The notes under the pieces: generated by a model
Seen by the model: the letters and a program-made list of their open reading frames with translations, nothing else
The model's database searches: none
Told to the model about the DNA's origin: nothing
Part shown: positions 21,421-52,319 of the stretch, one piece after another
Position numbering within the stretch: the stretch's first letter is position 1
Layout of the letters: every line of letters starts with the position of its first letter
Assembly (NCBI GenBank): GCA_027492205.1
Contig: JAOZFN010000007.1
Coordinates: 283,278-347,277, forward strand
DNA length: 64,000 bases
Direction: 5' to 3'
Source of the DNA: Thermoproteota archaeon
Lineage (GTDB): Archaea; Korarchaeota; Korarchaeia; Korarchaeales; Korarchaeaceae
Translations under genes and position numbers: made by a program

Positions 21421-21524
21421 TGGTGGACCGGGCGGGATTTGAACCCGCGAGCCTCCCGCAGATTAGGCCGGCCTAAAAGGCCAGCTTGCCAAGCGGGCGC
21501 TCTACCAGGCTGAGCTACCGGCCC
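21421..21524 (-). tRNA. tRNA-Ala(GGC) with a 26-nt canonical 37/38 intron (21461-21486) and encoded CCA
   Basis: GGGCCGG acceptor stem with G3:U70, anticodon arm CCCGC-UU-GGC-A, T-loop GGUUCAAAUCC; BHB helix UUGG/CUAA and intron hairpin GCUGGCC/GGCCGGC; TATA-like TTTAATT about 30 nt upstream. Confidence 0.96.
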
Positions 21525-47083: not shown

Positions 47084-47299
47084 ACCGAGGGCTGCCGGAC
47101 GATTGCCAGCAGAGATGCTCTAGAGCTTGCTGAGCCGCTCCACAGCCGAAACGAGTTCCGATCGAGATCGCCGCCAGCGGCCGATCCGGTGCCTATGGCA
47201 AGAATCACAAATTTGTCAAAGTTCGCGCGCGAGCCAGTGAGCGGAGGCGCGGCCCCTCCCAGGATCGCCGGCTCTCCCGGGGATCGCCCGGTGGGATCT

Positions 47300-48280
47300 C
47301 GGCGCACCTTTCAGGTCGGGATGGAATCCTCCTCTCGCGCGTGGGGTATCCACAAGGCGGTATCGGCCGTCCGGCACGCTCTCAGGGCCGCTTCCAGCGG
47401 TGAGAGGGTCCTCTATGTCTCGGTCACGCGCGGCCCCCGGCGTATCAGGGAGGCCGCGGAGCGCCTCGGAGTGGGCCTTTGGGAATTTGAGGAGCGCGGA
47501 CTTCTGAGGCTCCTCCGCATCACGCCTGCCGCAAGGCAGGAGGGGGCCCAGCAAGCTCTGCTGGACTTCACAGAGGAGCTGAGGTCCTTCTCACCCGACC
47601 TGTCGTCATAGAAGGGCCGCGCTCTGTTCGCCAACCTGTGCCTCTACACGCTTTTTGGGCCCTTCGGGGAAGGGTTCTACGGTTGGCAGAGGAGGGCGAG
47701 CTCGCCGACGTGGTCATCGCGAACGAAGAAGGACTCGACCTCAACCCGGCTGCCAAGCAGTTCACCGTGGAGATGAGCAACGTGGTCGTCCGACTCGGCT
47801 GGGGGAAGATCGAGAACGTCCGAGTGAGGACCATGAACATCTGAAGCGTTGGACTCGAGGTGGCCAGGCCTTCTCGGGAGTTCGTAATCTCCAAGGAGCT
47901 TGGAGGGGCCCTGGTGCTGGCCATCACCCGCAGCCTGTACGACCTCCCCGGTCGGGGAATCCCATTAGCTTGTGGTGAAGAAGCTGAAGGAACTCCTCGG
48001 AGGCGAGATCCCACGTGGATCCGTGACCGCGATAGTCGGTGGAACCGGCGCGGGCAAGGGGGAGCTGGCCGACATCTCGGCCGAGGTGCGAAACGCGGTG
48101 GGAGGGTCCACGTGCTTAGCTTCGACCTGCCATGGTCCGACGTTGAGGCGCTCCCAAGGGGTCGAAGGGCGCGGTCATGCTGGTGGAGGGGGGTCCAGCC
48201 GTCCGGGGAGTTCGTCAAGAGCGCGGTGCGTCAAGCGACCACGCGCATTGCGAGAGCCTCGGCATCAGCTGGCTGAATCT
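47300..48280 (+). pseudogene. KaiC/RecA-like duplicated ATPase pseudogene (boundaries approximate)
   Basis: Fragments 'GERVLYVSV...FEERGLL' and 'LKELLGGEIPRGSVTAIVGGTGAGKG' in different frames. Confidence 0.7.
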
Positions 48281-48300: not shown

Positions 48301-48386
48301 TGAGAACCCCCGAGGGTGGGAGTGCGATCTGGGCCTGGTTGCCCAAGACCAAACCGCATCCGCCTTGCGGGCGGAGTTGCCCTCCC
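48301..48386 (-). ncRNA. Candidate structured ncRNA, copy B (69-nt three-way-junction core 48318-48386)
   Basis: GGGAGGGC...GCACUCCC closing stem and two hairpins; TTTAAATA at 48409-48416; homologous to 51908-51976. Confidence 0.6.
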
Positions 48387-48525
48387 GATATCGATTGGAG
48401 GGCGGGAGTATTTAAAGTAAGGGGGTCAAGCTGCGGAGATAGAACGTAAGAGAAGCCTTTGAATCGCATTCCGGCCTGTCGAGCTCGCTTTAAGTGGAAA
48501 TGGGGTTACCTCCGAGACCTAGCCC

Positions 48526-48909
48526 TCAGCCCCTGGCCTTCACCAGCAGCCAGTTCTCCGACCCTCTCATCCTGATCAGGGCGTACTTGCCCCTCATCCT
48601 CCCTCCCCTGGCCACGAAGGTGATCTTGTCTGGGGTTCTCTCGAGGAGTTCGTACTCGCCCCGATCCCATATCCTGACCTCTCCTGCCCCGTAGTGCCCC
48701 TCGGGAATCACCCCCTCGAAGTCCGCATACTCCAGCGGGTGGTCCTCGGTCTGCACCGCCAGCCTCCTCACTCCCGGCTCCGTCGGGATCCCCTTCGGAA
48801 TGGCCCACGACTTGAGGACGCCGTCCATCTCCAGCCTCAGGTCCCAGTGCAGCCTCCTCGCGTGGTGCTCTTGGACGACGAATATGGGCATGCCCGGTCT
48901 GGTAGCCAA
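48526..48909 (-). CDS. Stand-alone LigD 3'-phosphoesterase domain protein (likely start ATG 48891)
   Basis: 'FVVQEHHARRLHWDLRLEMDGVLKSWAIPKG...RLAVQTEDHPLEYADFEGVIPEGHYGAG'. Confidence 0.93.
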   Translation of the reverse strand: MATRPGMPIFVVQEHHARRLHWDLRLEMDGVLKSWAIPKGIPTEPGVRRLAVQTEDHPLEYADFEGVIPEGHYGAGEVRIWDRGEYELLERTPDKITFVARGGRMRGKYALIRMRGSENWLLVKARG

Positions 48910-48964
48910 CGCCGCGGGCCCTTTTTAGTCACGCTCCTCATTTTCAGAGGAGCTCCCGTCGGAG

Positions 48965-50299
48965 GTGGGCTTATTACGCGGCCGGCGGCGGGCTCGGAGG
49001 GAAGCGCCCTTGCCCGGCATAGTGGTCGTTGGGATGCAGTTCGGGGATGAGAGCAAGGGGGCCGTCGTGGACTACCTGTCCAGGGATGCAGACCTCGTGG
49101 TGAGGTACAACGGCGGGGCCAACGCGGGCCACACAGTCGCCACCGGAGACCTGAGGCTCAAGTTCCGCCTCATGCCGTCCGGCGCCCTCTGGGGAAAGAG
49201 GCTCGTCATCGGAAATGGGGTCGTGGTGGATCCAAAGGTCCTGCTGGACGAGATTAAGGCTCTGAGGGAGGTGGGCGTGGAGCCGAACCTGCTGTTGAGC
49301 AGGAAGGCCCACGTGGTCATGCCCTACCACAAGGTCATAGACGCCGGCAAGATGGCCGGATCGCTGGGCACCACCAAGAGGGGGATAGGCCCGACCTACG
49401 CCGACAAGGCCAGGAGGACCGACGCGATCAGGGTGGACGATCTCGTGGGGCCGAGGTTCAGGGAGAGACTCGAGTCCGTGCTCAGGTTCAAGCTGGACGA
49501 ACTCGTCGCCTACGGCATCGTGAGGAGGGAGGAGGACCTTCCCAAGTACCTTGAGGAGGTCTACGGGGAGTACTCGGAGTACGGAAGGGAACTCAGGCCC
49601 TACGCGGGCGAGGCCTACCTCGAGGTGAACCGGGCCCTGGACGAGGGCAAGGTCGTCCTGTTCGAGGGGGCCCAGGGCACCCTGCTGGACTTGGACCACG
49701 GGACCTACCCCTACGTCACCTCCTCAAACCCCGTGGCCGGAGGGGCGTGCGTTGGAGTGGGGGTCGGGCCCACCAGGATAGACAGGGTGATAGGCGTGGC
49801 CAAGGCCTACACCACCAGGGTGGGCGCGGGTCCGTTCCCGACGGAGATCCACGACGAGCTCGGCGACAGGATCAGGGAGAGGGGAGGCGAGTACGGCACC
49901 GTGACGGGGAGGCCCAGGAGGTGCGGGTGGCTCGACCTGCCCATGCTCAGGTACTCGATCATGATCAACGGGATCACCGAGATCGCCCTCCGCAAGCTGG
50001 ACGTGCTGGGCGGGACAAGGCCCCTGAAGGTGGCCGTGGCGTACGAGATCGACGGCGAGGAGAGGGAGGTCATGACGCCCTTCGTCTCCGACCTGGAGAG
50101 GGTGAGGCCCGTCTACGAGGAGCTGGACGGGTGGGAAGAGCTCTCTCCGGGTGAGTGGGGGAGGGTTGCGAGGCGGGGGTACGACGCCCTCCCGAGGGGC
50201 GCGAGGGACTACGTGGAGTTCATCGAGGAGAGGCTCGGCGTGCCCGTGACGATGGTGGGCGTGGGTCCGAGGCGGGAGGACACCATCGAGAGGGTGTAA
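48965..50299 (+). CDS. purA: Adenylosuccinate synthetase (likely start TTG about 49010)
   Basis: 'QFGDESKG', 'GGANAGHT', 'GTTKRGIGPTY', 'EGAQG.LLDLDHGTYPYVTSS', 'TGRPRRCGW'. Confidence 0.97.
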   Translation: MGLLRGRRRARREAPLPGIVVVGMQFGDESKGAVVDYLSRDADLVVRYNGGANAGHTVATGDLRLKFRLMPSGALWGKRLVIGNGVVVDPKVLLDEIKALREVGVEPNLLLSRKAHVVMPYHKVIDAGKMAGSLGTTKRGIGPTYADKARRTDAIRVDDLVGPRFRERLESVLRFKLDELVAYGIVRREEDLPKYLEEVYGEYSEYGRELRPYAGEAYLEVNRALDEGKVVLFEGAQGTLLDLDHGTYPYVTSSNPVAGGACVGVGVGPTRIDRVIGVAKAYTTRVGAGPFPTEIHDELGDRIRERGGEYGTVTGRPRRCGWLDLPMLRYSIMINGITEIALRKLDVLGGTRPLKVAVAYEIDGEEREVMTPFVSDLERVRPVYEELDGWEELSPGEWGRVARRGYDALPRGARDYVEFIEERLGVPVTMVGVGPRREDTIERV

Positions 50300-50639
50300 C
50301 CTAGATCTCTGCCGAAGGGAGGCGCCTGGTGTCCAAGGGGATTACTATGGGGTCTGCTGTACCGCGCGGGGGAGCCTGGCGGTTCTGGCGGAGGTTATCT
50401 TTTCGTACCGGGTCTCCTGCCATCGACGGCCTTCGCAGTTTGTCTGGACGTACGAGGTTGCCGCGAGGGTGGAGGACCCAAGAGTGGCTCCATACCACGG
50501 GACCTGGACGCTGCAACCCGACACCGAGAGCACGTCAGCCCGTTTTTTCTACATACCCACAACCTTCGGGAGGTCCGAGGCGGGATGTCGGACCGGGGAG
50601 GCGCGAGCGATAAAATATGAGACCCAGGTTTAGCTCGCG

Positions 50640-51221
50640 GTGCGAGGAGCGTTGTTGGGAGGCCGCGGGCGATTGGCTCTCCTCTTGGCTGCAGGGTTTG
50701 CGGCCGCTGCCCTGGCGTACGCGGCCTTGAAAGGCCCGGAAAGGCCCCCCTCCGCGGCGCGGATCGAGCTCTCGAGTCCCGCCTTCGAGGGAGGAGGAGT
50801 CATCCCGAGGAGGTACACCTGCGACGGCGAGGACGTCTCCCCTCCGCTAGAGTGGGGCGATCTCCCGGAGGGAACCCTGTCCCTGGCGCTGATAGTTTTC
50901 GATCCAGACGCCCCGGGTGGCGAGTTCACACACTGGTTGATCTACGGGATCCCCGCCGACGTCGGGGGGCTTCCCGAGGGAGTTCCCGGTGAGGGGGTCG
51001 TCGCCGGCCTGGGAACCCAGGGCCGGAACGACTTCGGGAGGATAGGGTACGGCGGTCCGTGCCCACCCCCGGGCCCCGCGCATCGGTACGTCTTCAGGCT
51101 CTTCGCCCTCGACGCGGAGCTCGACCTGCCGCCCGGAATCACCAGGGGCGAGCTGGAGGCGGCCGTTGAGGGGCACGTCTTGGGCGTGGGGGAGCTGGTA
51201 GGCCTGTACTCAAGGCCGTGA
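50640..51221 (+). CDS. YbhB/YbcL (PEBP/Raf kinase inhibitor-like) protein with an N-terminal membrane anchor
   Basis: 'YTCDGEDVSPPL', 'DPDAP..FTHW', 'GYGGPCPP...HRYVF'. Confidence 0.93.
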   Translation: MRGALLGGRGRLALLLAAGFAAAALAYAALKGPERPPSAARIELSSPAFEGGGVIPRRYTCDGEDVSPPLEWGDLPEGTLSLALIVFDPDAPGGEFTHWLIYGIPADVGGLPEGVPGEGVVAGLGTQGRNDFGRIGYGGPCPPPGPAHRYVFRLFALDAELDLPPGITRGELEAAVEGHVLGVGELVGLYSRP

Positions 51222-51239
51222 GACTGGAGGCGCGCGGCC

Positions 51240-51800
51240 ATGGGCTACAGGGCCCACCTGCTGGCGGGGGGAGCGGTAGGGGTCGCCGCGGCCCTGACGC
51301 TCCGGGGCCTTGGCCTGAGTTCGGCGGGGGGCCTCTGCCCCGTGCTGGTCGTGGCATTCGCCCCCCTGGGCGCGCTGCTCCCCGACCTCGACGTGACCTC
51401 CTCGAAGGTCAGCAGACTGTCCGGGGCTCTGGCCGTCGGCTTCGTCGCCTGGGCTCTGATCTCTGAGGGGCCGCTGAGGTACTTCGCGCTCTGGTGGGTC
51501 GGGGTCGTCGTGGTAGGGTCGACGCTCGGCCCACTAGGCAGACACAGGTCGGCGTTCCACTGGGTCATCCCGGTCCTCCTGATCGTCCCCCTCCTCTTCT
51601 CTCACTGGGCGCTAGAAGGCGAGGTGTCGGGGCCGCTCGACTTAAGCGGCCTCCACCTCCTGTTGACGTCCCCTCTGGAGGAGTTCCGGGCGATCTGGGC
51701 CTCCTCTTGGCCCGGCGGCCCCCTGACCCCGGAGTTCTGCGCAACCGTAGGCGCGGTCCTCGGGGCCCTCTCTCACCTCTCTCTGGACCTGTACTTCTGA
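51240..51800 (+). CDS. Metal-dependent membrane hydrolase (YdjM-like)
   Basis: 'AH', 'GALLPDLD', 'HRSAFH', 'SHLSLD'. Confidence 0.85.
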   Translation: MGYRAHLLAGGAVGVAAALTLRGLGLSSAGGLCPVLVVAFAPLGALLPDLDVTSSKVSRLSGALAVGFVAWALISEGPLRYFALWWVGVVVVGSTLGPLGRHRSAFHWVIPVLLIVPLLFSHWALEGEVSGPLDLSGLHLLLTSPLEEFRAIWASSWPGGPLTPEFCATVGAVLGALSHLSLDLYF

Positions 51801-51888
51801 GTCCGGTGGTCGAGGGGTCTCGGCGCCTGATGCGGTCCCGTTAAGCTTGGAAGGGCCGCAAAGCCTGTTCAGGCGCAGAGTACATTGG

Positions 51889-51976
51889 AACGAGACCCCT
51901 TGAGGGTGGGAGAGCGATCCATTCCTCAGTTGCCCGAGGTGAGATCGCCTCCGCCTTTCGGCGGAGTTGCCCTCCC
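51889..51976 (-). ncRNA. Candidate structured ncRNA, copy A (69-nt three-way-junction core 51908-51976)
   Basis: 8-bp stem GGGAGGGC/GCUCUCCC, hairpins CUCCGCC-GAAA-GGCGGAG and CCUCGG-GCAA-CUGAGG; TTTAAATA at 51997-52004. Confidence 0.6.
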
Positions 51977-52319
51977 GAGCCACTTCCCGGCCCGGGTATT
52001 TAAACTAGGGGGCGCCGTCGCACGCGCGCGGAGGGCGGCCCGCGGGCCGGAGGGACATCGGTCTCGCCCTCCACTTCCGTTCGCTGGACCGATAGGTCTT
52101 CCACTCGTCTCGGGAGGATCGTTCACTTGTGGTCGCTGACCATAATGCGGCGGTCGCCGACCTTGAGACGCGTAAGGGCGTCCGTCGGAGGGATGAGAGG
52201 CGCCGCGCGCGTGCCGAGAGAGGTATAAAATGGCACGCGCCGCGAATGAGTAAGCTGTTGTTCCTTCGGTCTTCTCGGACGGTTAAACCTGGGGAGAGGG
52301 CTCACGGCTCCTCGATCCT

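Follow-up and report, generated by a model that had tools for sequence, protein, structure and literature searches.

Two RNA gene copies in the window

The 64-kb window (the whole stretch of DNA analyzed) was found to carry two copies, designated A and B, of a compact structured element, each preceded by its own TATA-type box. We interpret them as two paralogous, independently transcribed genes of a new structured small RNA that acts in trans and is probably bound by a protein; taken as a whole, with transcription and function deduced from the DNA, this reading has in our judgment about an even chance of being right. The initial annotation had seen in the two copies a stand-alone archaeal non-coding RNA (ncRNA) family, and this view is supported by the results presented below.

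Both cores are 69 nt long and lie on the minus strand (copy A, 51976 to 51908; copy B, 48386 to 48318), with sequences exactly as first quoted. As had been described, a perfect TTTAAATA is located upstream of each copy, 20 nt (A) or 22 nt (B) before the first G, the spacers between the box and this G are unrelated in the two copies, and a short ACCCUC..GGGGU hairpin continues from both. The individual elements are as follows.

51997..52004, minus strand: TATA box of copy A (TTTAAATA), 20 nt before the first G
51908..51976, minus strand: copy A core, 69 nt, scoring 83.6 bits with model R1
51972-51976 paired with 51908-51912, minus strand: P1 of copy A
51966-51971, minus strand: junction strand GGCAAC of copy A
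51950-51965, minus strand: P2 hairpin of copy A, with a GAAA loop
51914-51948, minus strand: P3 hairpin of copy A, with an internal loop and a GCAA loop
51895..51907, minus strand: short 3' hairpin of copy A (ACCCUC..GGGGU), then a U-containing tail; likely 3' end region
51800..51894, listed on the minus strand: long conserved hairpin lying between copy A and the convergent YdjM-like gene, on the stop-codon side of the latter
48409..48416, minus strand: TATA box of copy B (TTTAAATA), 22 nt before the first G
48318..48386, minus strand: copy B core, 69 nt, scoring 76.3 bits with model R1; three-way junction as in copy A, P2 loop CGCAA, P3 a near-continuous helix with a GCAA loop
48306..48317, minus strand: short 3' hairpin of copy B (ACCCUC..GGGGU)

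The sequence TTTAAATA occurs twice in the 64-kb window, against 0.06 occurrences expected, and both occurrences are the TATA boxes of the two copies; a count of two was reached in none of 100 shuffles. Genome-wide, there are 16 occurrences. When copy A was compared with its own 1.94-Mb genome by blastn, copy B was matched (E = 1.1e-12) and no further full-length copy was found. The duplicated unit shared by copies A and B comprises the promoter and the RNA only, and 3' of the core the two are unrelated in sequence. The long hairpin at 51800..51894 may either extend RNA A or form an element of its own, on either strand; none of its 28 predicted pairs is changed on both sides in three close relatives.

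Secondary structure and covariation

A three-way junction, as initially proposed, was predicted for both copies, with a fold energy of −42.6 kcal/mol (z −6.6) for copy A and −39.2 kcal/mol (z −4.0) for copy B. The same junction was obtained for every copy folded (10 foldings representing 8 loci, z −1.6 to −6.6). The closing helix (P1) exists, but it is 5 bp long by comparison; the 8-bp version originally described is found only in the minimum-energy fold of copy A. The comparative data define a 5-bp P1 (GGGMG/CKCCC) and a 6-nt junction strand, GGYAAC, and assign the GC to the base of P3.

Pair statistics were calculated from 19 aligned copies, representing 14 distinct sequences, over 22 pairs. 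Across the resulting 308 pair cells, 97.4% contain standard pairs, and changes on both sides are present in 8 of the 22 pairs. Neither the observed pairing nor the covariation score was reached by any of 500 shuffles, and when the partners were slid out of register, pairing fell to 38–52%.

Sequence invariance is centered on P1, GGYAAC and P2. The junction strand is invariant across the members, and P2, a 6-bp hairpin with a GNRA-type loop, is almost invariant in sequence. P3 is long and freely co-varying, having diverged with compensation; a GNRA-type loop is present in most copies, and internal loops are found in most members without being conserved, copy B having almost none. In each of the 14 distinct sequences, P2 and P3 are connected by one nucleotide, which varies (G, A or U). 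Because only seven genomes from two sister genera are represented, shallow divergence could account for some of the sequence invariance. The longest conserved unpaired stretch is 6 nt and therefore too short for a typical seed. The cores are 67, 69, 70, 71, 72, 82 or 83 nt long and thus vary out of frame; a protein-coding ORF is argued against by these lengths, which do not differ in multiples of three, together with the compensatory substitutions in the stems.

Distribution of homologues

Homologues were identified in 7 of the 151 archaeal genomes searched, all of them belonging to two sister genera within a single small phylum. Four genomes carry two copies and three carry one, and more copies were found on metagenome contigs. 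Both paralogues are kept in all four RNA-carrying genomes of the window's genus, as well as on two metagenome contigs. The initial annotation had named further homologues and covariation as a check on the proposed family; more homologues were found, and they show compensatory changes. It had also considered a MITE end, which can be discounted given that there are at most two copies per genome, at positions conserved among species. No stretch in the viral contigs was matched.

Borderline model matches (E 0.2–3) were dropped, as they lack a TATA box and are situated in DNA of coding appearance. Nine bacterial stretches obtained in a pattern scan were rejected (eight with scores of no more than 31 bits, one without a match), as was one metagenome stretch scoring 24 bits.

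Transcription unit and neighboring genes

A TATA-type box (TTTAAATA, TTTATATA or TTTTTATA) is located 20–22 nt upstream in all 16 instances tabulated, with unrelated spacers. A U-rich tract lies 3' of the RNA; a short 3' hairpin is present in 9 of the 16 instances, and the other seven lead straight into U tracts. In the GC-rich genus, the U tracts that follow the 3' hairpin are weak. Each copy is predicted to be transcribed from its own strong archaeal TATA promoter, beginning at the first G or an adjacent nucleotide; the transcript would end either at the U-rich tract that directly follows P1 or downstream of the short 3' hairpin. The predicted start and end give an RNA of approximately 75–95 nt.

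The claim that no same-strand gene lies downstream holds for both copies in the window, but not for some relatives, which do have one. Both copies in the window are directed toward the 3' ends of genes on the opposite strand, a YdjM-like gene for copy A and a KaiC remnant for copy B. The downstream gene is not conserved, and at least four different arrangements were found among the relatives. In all three genomes of the second genus, the RNA is located 71–78 nt upstream of a same-strand gene for a KaiC/GvpD-like ATPase, with a U tract and a separately, fully conserved promoter-like box between the RNA and this gene. On one metagenome contig, an EamA transporter gene follows copy A at a distance of 185 nt. 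A tandem arrangement of the RNA with its neighbor is seen in the second genus and on a single metagenome contig, and a divergent one on other contigs. A V4R/ACT protein and a PEBP-like protein are also encoded in the neighborhood. The KaiC-like ATPase was considered as an obligate partner of the RNA and rejected: the neighbors in the two genera are non-orthologous (24% identity; not each other's matches), and the gene is fragmentary in the window's genome and absent beside copy B in another genome.

Comparison with known RNA families

The two copies had been proposed to represent an unannotated family, and no Rfam match at threshold was obtained in a scan of the window or in E-value scans of the region and two relatives. 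The gathering-threshold scan of the window identified only a tRNA (21424–21524), while the E-value scans returned sub-threshold noise only, with none of the 4227 families of Rfam 15 showing homology. In saying that the RNA has not been described before, we refer to Rfam 15 and to a literature search, in which no paper on this RNA or on SRP-less archaea came up.

The resemblance to c-di-GMP-I, called superficial at the outset, is confined to the P2 hairpin, with 18.6 bits against a gathering score of 59. In the comparison with c-di-GMP-I-GGC (RF03167)/RF01051, this score (E = 0.55) was reached by copy A over model positions 12–35 of 80; a relative scored 10.6 bits (gathering score 59), and a second-genus member gave no match. 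The RNA is like GEMM-I in being a three-helix junction with a purine-rich strand (here GGYAAC) before a GNRA-capped P2, and in having a longer P3 that could pack alongside. GEMM-I has a long conserved segment between P2 and P3, with ligand-contacting bases. The corresponding strand of the RNA described here is a single variable nucleotide, and P3 contains no conserved receptor. It also differs from GEMM-I in that its hosts are archaea and that it is not placed in a 5' UTR in the window's genus; in the second genus a gene does follow the RNA, but U tracts and a promoter-like box belonging to that gene lie in between.

Other classes were examined and rejected. A tRNA or tRNA-like element was dismissed, as the copies lie outside the sole tRNA match, form a three-way rather than a four-way junction and have no T-loop. 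No C/D-box or H/ACA guide sRNA model match overlaps the elements; weak matches to sR53, sR28 and PyrR208 lie away from them (E ≥ 1.6). RNase P RNA is encoded elsewhere in the genome. A likeness in kind exists to orphan structured small RNAs known from comparative genomics, such as the motifs of unknown function classified in Rfam as "Gene; sRNA", which share the own promoter, the compact covarying fold and the narrow taxonomic range; unlike such motifs of prokaryotes, the RNA is archaeal and has no homology to Rfam 15 families. No known family or functional class could be assigned to it.

SRP components in the RNA-carrying clade

The clade that carries the RNA was found to be without SRP RNA, SRP19, SRP54 and FtsY by every search run. 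The SRP RNA models RF01857 and RF00169 gave no match anywhere in the genome, PF02978, PF00448 and PF01922 are absent from the window's genome, and tblastn with the SRP proteins of relatives returned P-loop-sized matches only (E 0.004 or worse). A third SRP-less genus has no copy of the RNA; a weak SRP match in this genus (14–22 bits) lies in coding-like DNA and was rejected. SRP is generally regarded as universal; should its absence be borne out by closed genomes, this would be a remarkable loss.

The S domain of SRP RNA is a three-way junction composed of a closing helix and a short and a long hairpin, both tetraloop-capped. The RNA resembles the archaeal S domain (RF01857) in its closing helix, its short tetraloop hairpin and its long tetraloop hairpin with internal loops. 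It differs from this domain in that there is no model match, the lengths of the junction strands are different and the P3 loops are not conserved, and from SRP RNA as a whole in its different locus, its two copies and the absence of SRP19 and SRP54. Synteny gave no indication of an SRP relic: the proteins flanking the RNA were unmatched in 13 SRP-RNA loci, and the locus syntenic with the SRP RNA of relatives holds nothing SRP-like.

Proposed function and alternative explanations

We propose that the RNA would act in trans as a folded molecule, whose conserved face (the top of P1, GGYAAC and P2) would be recognized by a partner molecule, a protein being the most probable candidate. Neither a role as the leader of a downstream gene nor base pairing with mRNAs is envisaged. 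A cis-acting, riboswitch-like leader, in which the junction binds a small molecule and controls downstream read-through or translation, and which would be ancestral in the KaiC-like operon of the second genus, could account for several of the observations: the architecture is that of junction-type aptamers, with invariant junction nucleotides and two arms, both with GNRA caps, that could pack against each other, P2 gives a weak partial match to c-di-GMP-I-GGC, and same-strand genes follow at 71–78 nt (KaiC/GvpD-like, three of three second-genus genomes) or at 185 nt (EamA transporter, copy A on one metagenome contig). We nevertheless consider a leader unlikely, because the downstream gene is not conserved in the window's genus, both copies face opposite-strand genes, and no conserved alternative-pairing expression platform is present. 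Even in the second genus, the gene is set apart from the RNA by U tracts and the fully conserved promoter-like box, and the KaiC-like genes to be controlled are non-orthologous between the two genera (24% identity), fragmentary in the window's genome and absent beside copy B in another. A bolder suggestion is that of a free-standing ligand-sensing aptamer acting in trans. The orientation of both copies toward the 3' ends of the opposite-strand YdjM-like gene (A) and KaiC remnant (B), the weak U tracts after the 3' hairpin in the GC-rich genus and the conserved hairpin that continues downstream of copy A would also suit the stable structured 5' end of longer transcripts, running antisense into the convergent neighbors and regulating them. 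This appears improbable given that the arrangement varies (tandem in the second genus and on a single metagenome contig, divergent on other contigs), and that the sequences downstream of the core are unrelated between copies A and B.

That the RNA is tied to the SRP loss, either as a re-used remnant of the S-domain junction or as the RNA subunit of whatever replaced SRP, seems to us very unlikely, and we give no more weight to the narrower idea that the RNA is a remnant of, or stands in for, the S domain and was retained in a new role by a clade that has lost the SRP proteins. The RNA does occur only inside a clade from which canonical SRP RNA, SRP19 and both SRP54-type GTPases are missing, and the 5'-to-3' order of its helices agrees with that of the S domain, GNRA caps and internal loops included. 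However, no SRP model was matched even at E 10 (121–131 nt and 3,951 nt searched), P3 has no conserved internal loops, copy B being almost devoid of them, and the two paralogues are not at the syntenic SRP RNA locus. The third SRP-less genus has no copy, and where two traits co-occur within one clade, each counts as one event only. The small size, the conserved junction core and the lack of a gene partner would fit a new class of small RNA with self-cleaving or other catalytic activity; the chances of this reading are equally slight, as no known ribozyme family matches, only two copies are present per genome, these are associated neither with repeats nor with mobile elements, and the viral contigs gave no matches.

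To our knowledge, few structured ncRNA families of unknown function have been described in archaea. With its clear gene structure, its well-supported fold and an invariant junction that resembles a binding site, the trans-acting RNA proposed here is ready for bench work. The RNA and the loss of SRP may be unrelated, but together they make this lineage worth study.

Two putative RNA genes in the window

Both 69-nt RNA sequences quoted in the initial annotation are present in the window, each preceded by the same TATA box:

51976->51908, minus strand: copy A, 69 nt, with TTTAAATA 20 nt before the first G
48386->48318, minus strand: copy B, 69 nt, with TTTAAATA 22 nt before the first G

The spacing of 20-22 nt between box and RNA was thus as described, comparison of the two copies confirmed that the spacers are unrelated, and the ACCCUC..GGGGU hairpin said to follow the core was found 3' of both. 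The similarity between copies A and B begins just 5' of the TATA box and is gone ∼25 nt past the core. A blastn search of the organism's own 1.94-Mb genome with copy A identified copy B (E 1.1e-12) and no other full-length match. The 64-kb window has two occurrences of TTTAAATA, precisely those of the two copies (0.06 occurrences expected), a number reached in none of 100 shuffles; the whole genome (63% GC) contains 16 occurrences, one of them 33 nt before a tRNA gene. A chance origin of the paired copies is excluded.

All 16 instances of the RNA that were tabulated carry TTTAAATA, TTTATATA or TTTTTATA at 20-22 nt upstream, and U-rich sequence follows the RNA either immediately or beyond a short hairpin. 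The core varies in length between 67 and 83 nt, with differences that are out of frame, which excludes a coding function. Judged from its sequence, this arrangement of box, core and U-rich tail corresponds to that of an independent archaeal RNA gene.

A long hairpin can be drawn on either strand at positions 51800-51894, in the stretch that separates copy A from the YdjM-like gene's stop codon. Three close relatives keep it, with none of its 28 predicted pairs changed on both sides. The hairpin could prolong RNA A, belong to a separate RNA, or form the 3' structure of the gene on the plus strand.

Secondary structure and its conservation

The predicted folds of copy A (-42.6 kcal/mol, z -6.6) and copy B (-39.2 kcal/mol, z -4.0) lie far below those of shuffled controls. 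The three-way junction proposed for these two copies was recovered in all copies folded, with the following elements:

P1 (closing helix): 5 bp, GGGMG/CKCCC
Junction strand: GGYAAC
P2 (short hairpin): 6 bp, loop GAAA, GAGA, GCAA or CGCAA
P2-P3 linker: one variable nucleotide
P3 (long hairpin): 34-50 nt, GNRA-type loop in most copies, variable internal loops
Between P3 and the 3' strand of P1: one nucleotide, U or A

Pairing was first tested on an initial set of ten copies and then in a model-guided alignment of 19 copies (14 distinct), in which standard pairs made up 97.4% of 308 pair cells. Eight of the 22 pairs, spread over all four helices, were changed on both sides. Neither the observed pairing nor the covariation score was matched in any of 500 shuffles, and displacing the 3' partners by 1-3 columns lowered the pairing to 38-52%. 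The alignment was fitted to the covariance model of the RNA (R1), which favours the structure; independent single-sequence folds agree with it. Invariant sequence is concentrated in P1, GGYAAC and P2, while P3 has diverged freely.

In one lineage, the P3 arms of the two paralogues (L060:3584-3654 and L060:10600-10669) are nearly identical, with about three differences counted by eye, and the two RNAs are unlike in P1, in the loop of P2 and in their tails. The P3 arms of window copies A and B, unlike this pair, are very different. This pattern suggests gene conversion or repeated duplication.

Relationship to known RNA families

The Rfam scan proposed with the initial annotation gave no strong match, and Rfam 15 contains no family for this RNA. 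The suggested likeness to c-di-GMP-I is indeed limited to P2: the c-di-GMP-I-GGC model scored 18.6 bits (cut-off 59), covering only P2 and its flanks. The tRNA, guide-RNA, ribozyme and SRP models did not match. RNase P RNA was ruled out, as it is encoded elsewhere in the genome, and so was a mobile repeat, because there are two copies per genome at conserved positions. With homologues in two genera and a shared fold, the view of the RNA as an unannotated archaeal non-coding family was borne out; the family is real and has good support, and neither Rfam 15 nor the literature searches gave an earlier description of it.

Distribution of the RNA

Relatives of the RNA in the window's genus (62% GC) and diverged copies in a sister genus of low GC content (∼42%) were identified with blastn. 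The suggested covariance-model search for further homologues was performed with R1, built from ten copies. It gave matches of 66-87 bits in seven genomes, corresponding to 7/36 of the family, 7/43 of the phylum and 7/151 of all archaeal genomes searched (108 from outside the phylum). Four of the five genomes of the window's genus carry two copies each, and three of the five sister-genus genomes carry one; in the remaining three genomes of these genera, completeness is 71-75%. The phylum's other 33 genomes gave no match, which, as the searches scored only part of the first-look candidates, does not equate to absence.

The adenylosuccinate synthetases of the two carrier genera share 71-73% identity (79% on one partial match), against 50-59% with those of two further families and of the family's other genera with a full-length match; the carrier genera are therefore each other's closest relatives. 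The RNA looks as if it had arisen once, within this clade.

A strict pattern scan of one genome per GTDB species recovered the same six archaeal MAGs and, in addition, nine stretches from bacteria, which were rejected (R1 ≤31 bits in eight, no match in one). Metagenomes yielded ten true copies on nine contigs, some of them duplicates of MAG contigs; two of the metagenome contigs carry both paralogues, 7 kb apart. None was found in the viral contigs scanned.

Genetic neighbourhood

The genes surrounding the two copies in the window are, in order:

plus strand: V4R/ACT protein
47189-48276, plus strand: fragmentary KaiC-like ATPase
minus strand: copy B
48526-48909, minus strand: LigD-type 3'-phosphoesterase (127 aa; PF13298, E 2.5e-41)
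plus strand: adenylosuccinate synthetase
plus strand: PEBP-like protein
plus strand: YdjM-like membrane protein
minus strand: copy A
minus strand: radical-SAM protein

In relatives, both RNAs stay a few kilobases from these genes, in differing arrangements. One lineage has copy B divergent from a PEBP-KaiC pair and another has it convergent with KaiC; where KaiC is absent, copy B converges directly on the V4R gene. Since the arrangements vary, neither a conserved gene downstream nor an obligatory neighbour exists. The claim that no same-strand gene lies downstream holds in the window but not in every relative: on one contig an EamA transporter gene begins 185 nt downstream of copy A, and in all three sister-genus carriers a KaiC/GvpD-like ATPase gene follows the single copy on the same strand after 71-78 nt. 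Between the RNA and that gene lie U tracts and a promoter-like box that is fully conserved. The KaiC-like genes of the two genera are 24% identical and are not each other's matches.

The promoter-like box, AATATTTTATTAGA, is identical in the three sister-genus loci (L038, L037 and L012), which also share a conserved AT-rich box 5' of the RNA's TATA box; both boxes may be regulator sites. The window's KaiC-like gene appears broken: it has a 140-aa ORF, its Pfam match spans only profile positions 32-102 of 231, and alignment with the 433-aa gene of the closest relative requires 13 gap positions, with ∼450 nt missing. An assembly error may be an alternative cause. The LigD-type gene, which lies immediately 5' of copy B and shares its strand, encodes a stand-alone domain protein; it also lies beside copy B in two close relatives but is not at this position in the other lineages. 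Elsewhere, a tRNA gene of the window (21424-21524, minus strand) and one on another contig of the same genome (L144:3583-3696, contig C12) have insertions of 28 and 41 nt, respectively, in the anticodon-loop region that look like archaeal tRNA introns.

SRP components in the carrier clade

The window organism's genome matched neither the archaeal nor the small SRP RNA model, nor a profile made from the SRP RNAs of 13 relatives, nor a helix-8 motif, and at the position where, judged by synteny, relatives have their SRP RNA it contains nothing SRP-like. The SRP54 M domain was not found in it, and tblastn with the relatives' SRP54 and SRP19 gave only P-loop-sized matches. In the clade of three genera (g1, g2 and g4; 11 genomes, 71-97% complete), SRP54, FtsY and SRP19 were not detected and no trustworthy SRP RNA was found.

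SRP components detected in the phylum
SRP RNA above cut-off: 31/43 phylum genomes; g1 0/5, g2 1/5, g4 0/1
SRP19: 31/43 phylum genomes; g1, g2 and g4 together 0/11
SRP54-type GTPases: 32/43 phylum genomes, usually two each; g1, g2 and g4 together 0/11

The other 32 genomes have SRP54-type GTPases (32/32), SRP19 (31/32) and SRP RNA above the cut-off (30/32). The single SRP RNA of the sister genus (L116, G015:C15:1816-2090) lies on a 3,073-bp contig that is probably mis-binned, although its GC content (42%) fits that genus. The ORF of this contig is 44-45% identical to its best matches in four sister-genus genomes, while other genes are 64-92% identical among members, and its SRP RNA has no homologue in those four.

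Possible mode of action

The evidence fits a stand-alone, stable and compactly folded RNA. The junction strand and P2 would form its conserved face and the variable P3 a structural arm, which, from the junction geometry, may pack against P2 through tetraloops. We favour, at roughly even chances, an action in trans in which a partner, most probably a protein, recognises the RNA. Base pairing with mRNAs is unlikely because conserved unpaired sequence is limited to a single stretch of 6 nt.

A riboswitch-like leader would suit the sister genus, with its KaiC/GvpD-like gene close downstream, but a classical leader is unlikely in the window's genus, where no downstream gene is conserved; overall we consider this explanation improbable. 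Both window RNAs are directed at the 3' ends of opposite-strand genes; that they are the 5' structure of antisense transcripts is somewhat less probable still. The RNA occurs only inside the SRP-less clade, a co-occurrence that is not statistical evidence, because it comes down to a single clade with a single event of each kind. Descent from SRP RNA has sequence, synteny and copy number against it, so that such a relic is very unlikely, and a ribozyme, for which no model matches, is equally hard to credit.

The RNA family is of interest in itself, and its unusual carrier lineage adds somewhat to this: if the loss of SRP holds in closed genomes, the clade would represent an SRP-less archaeal lineage.
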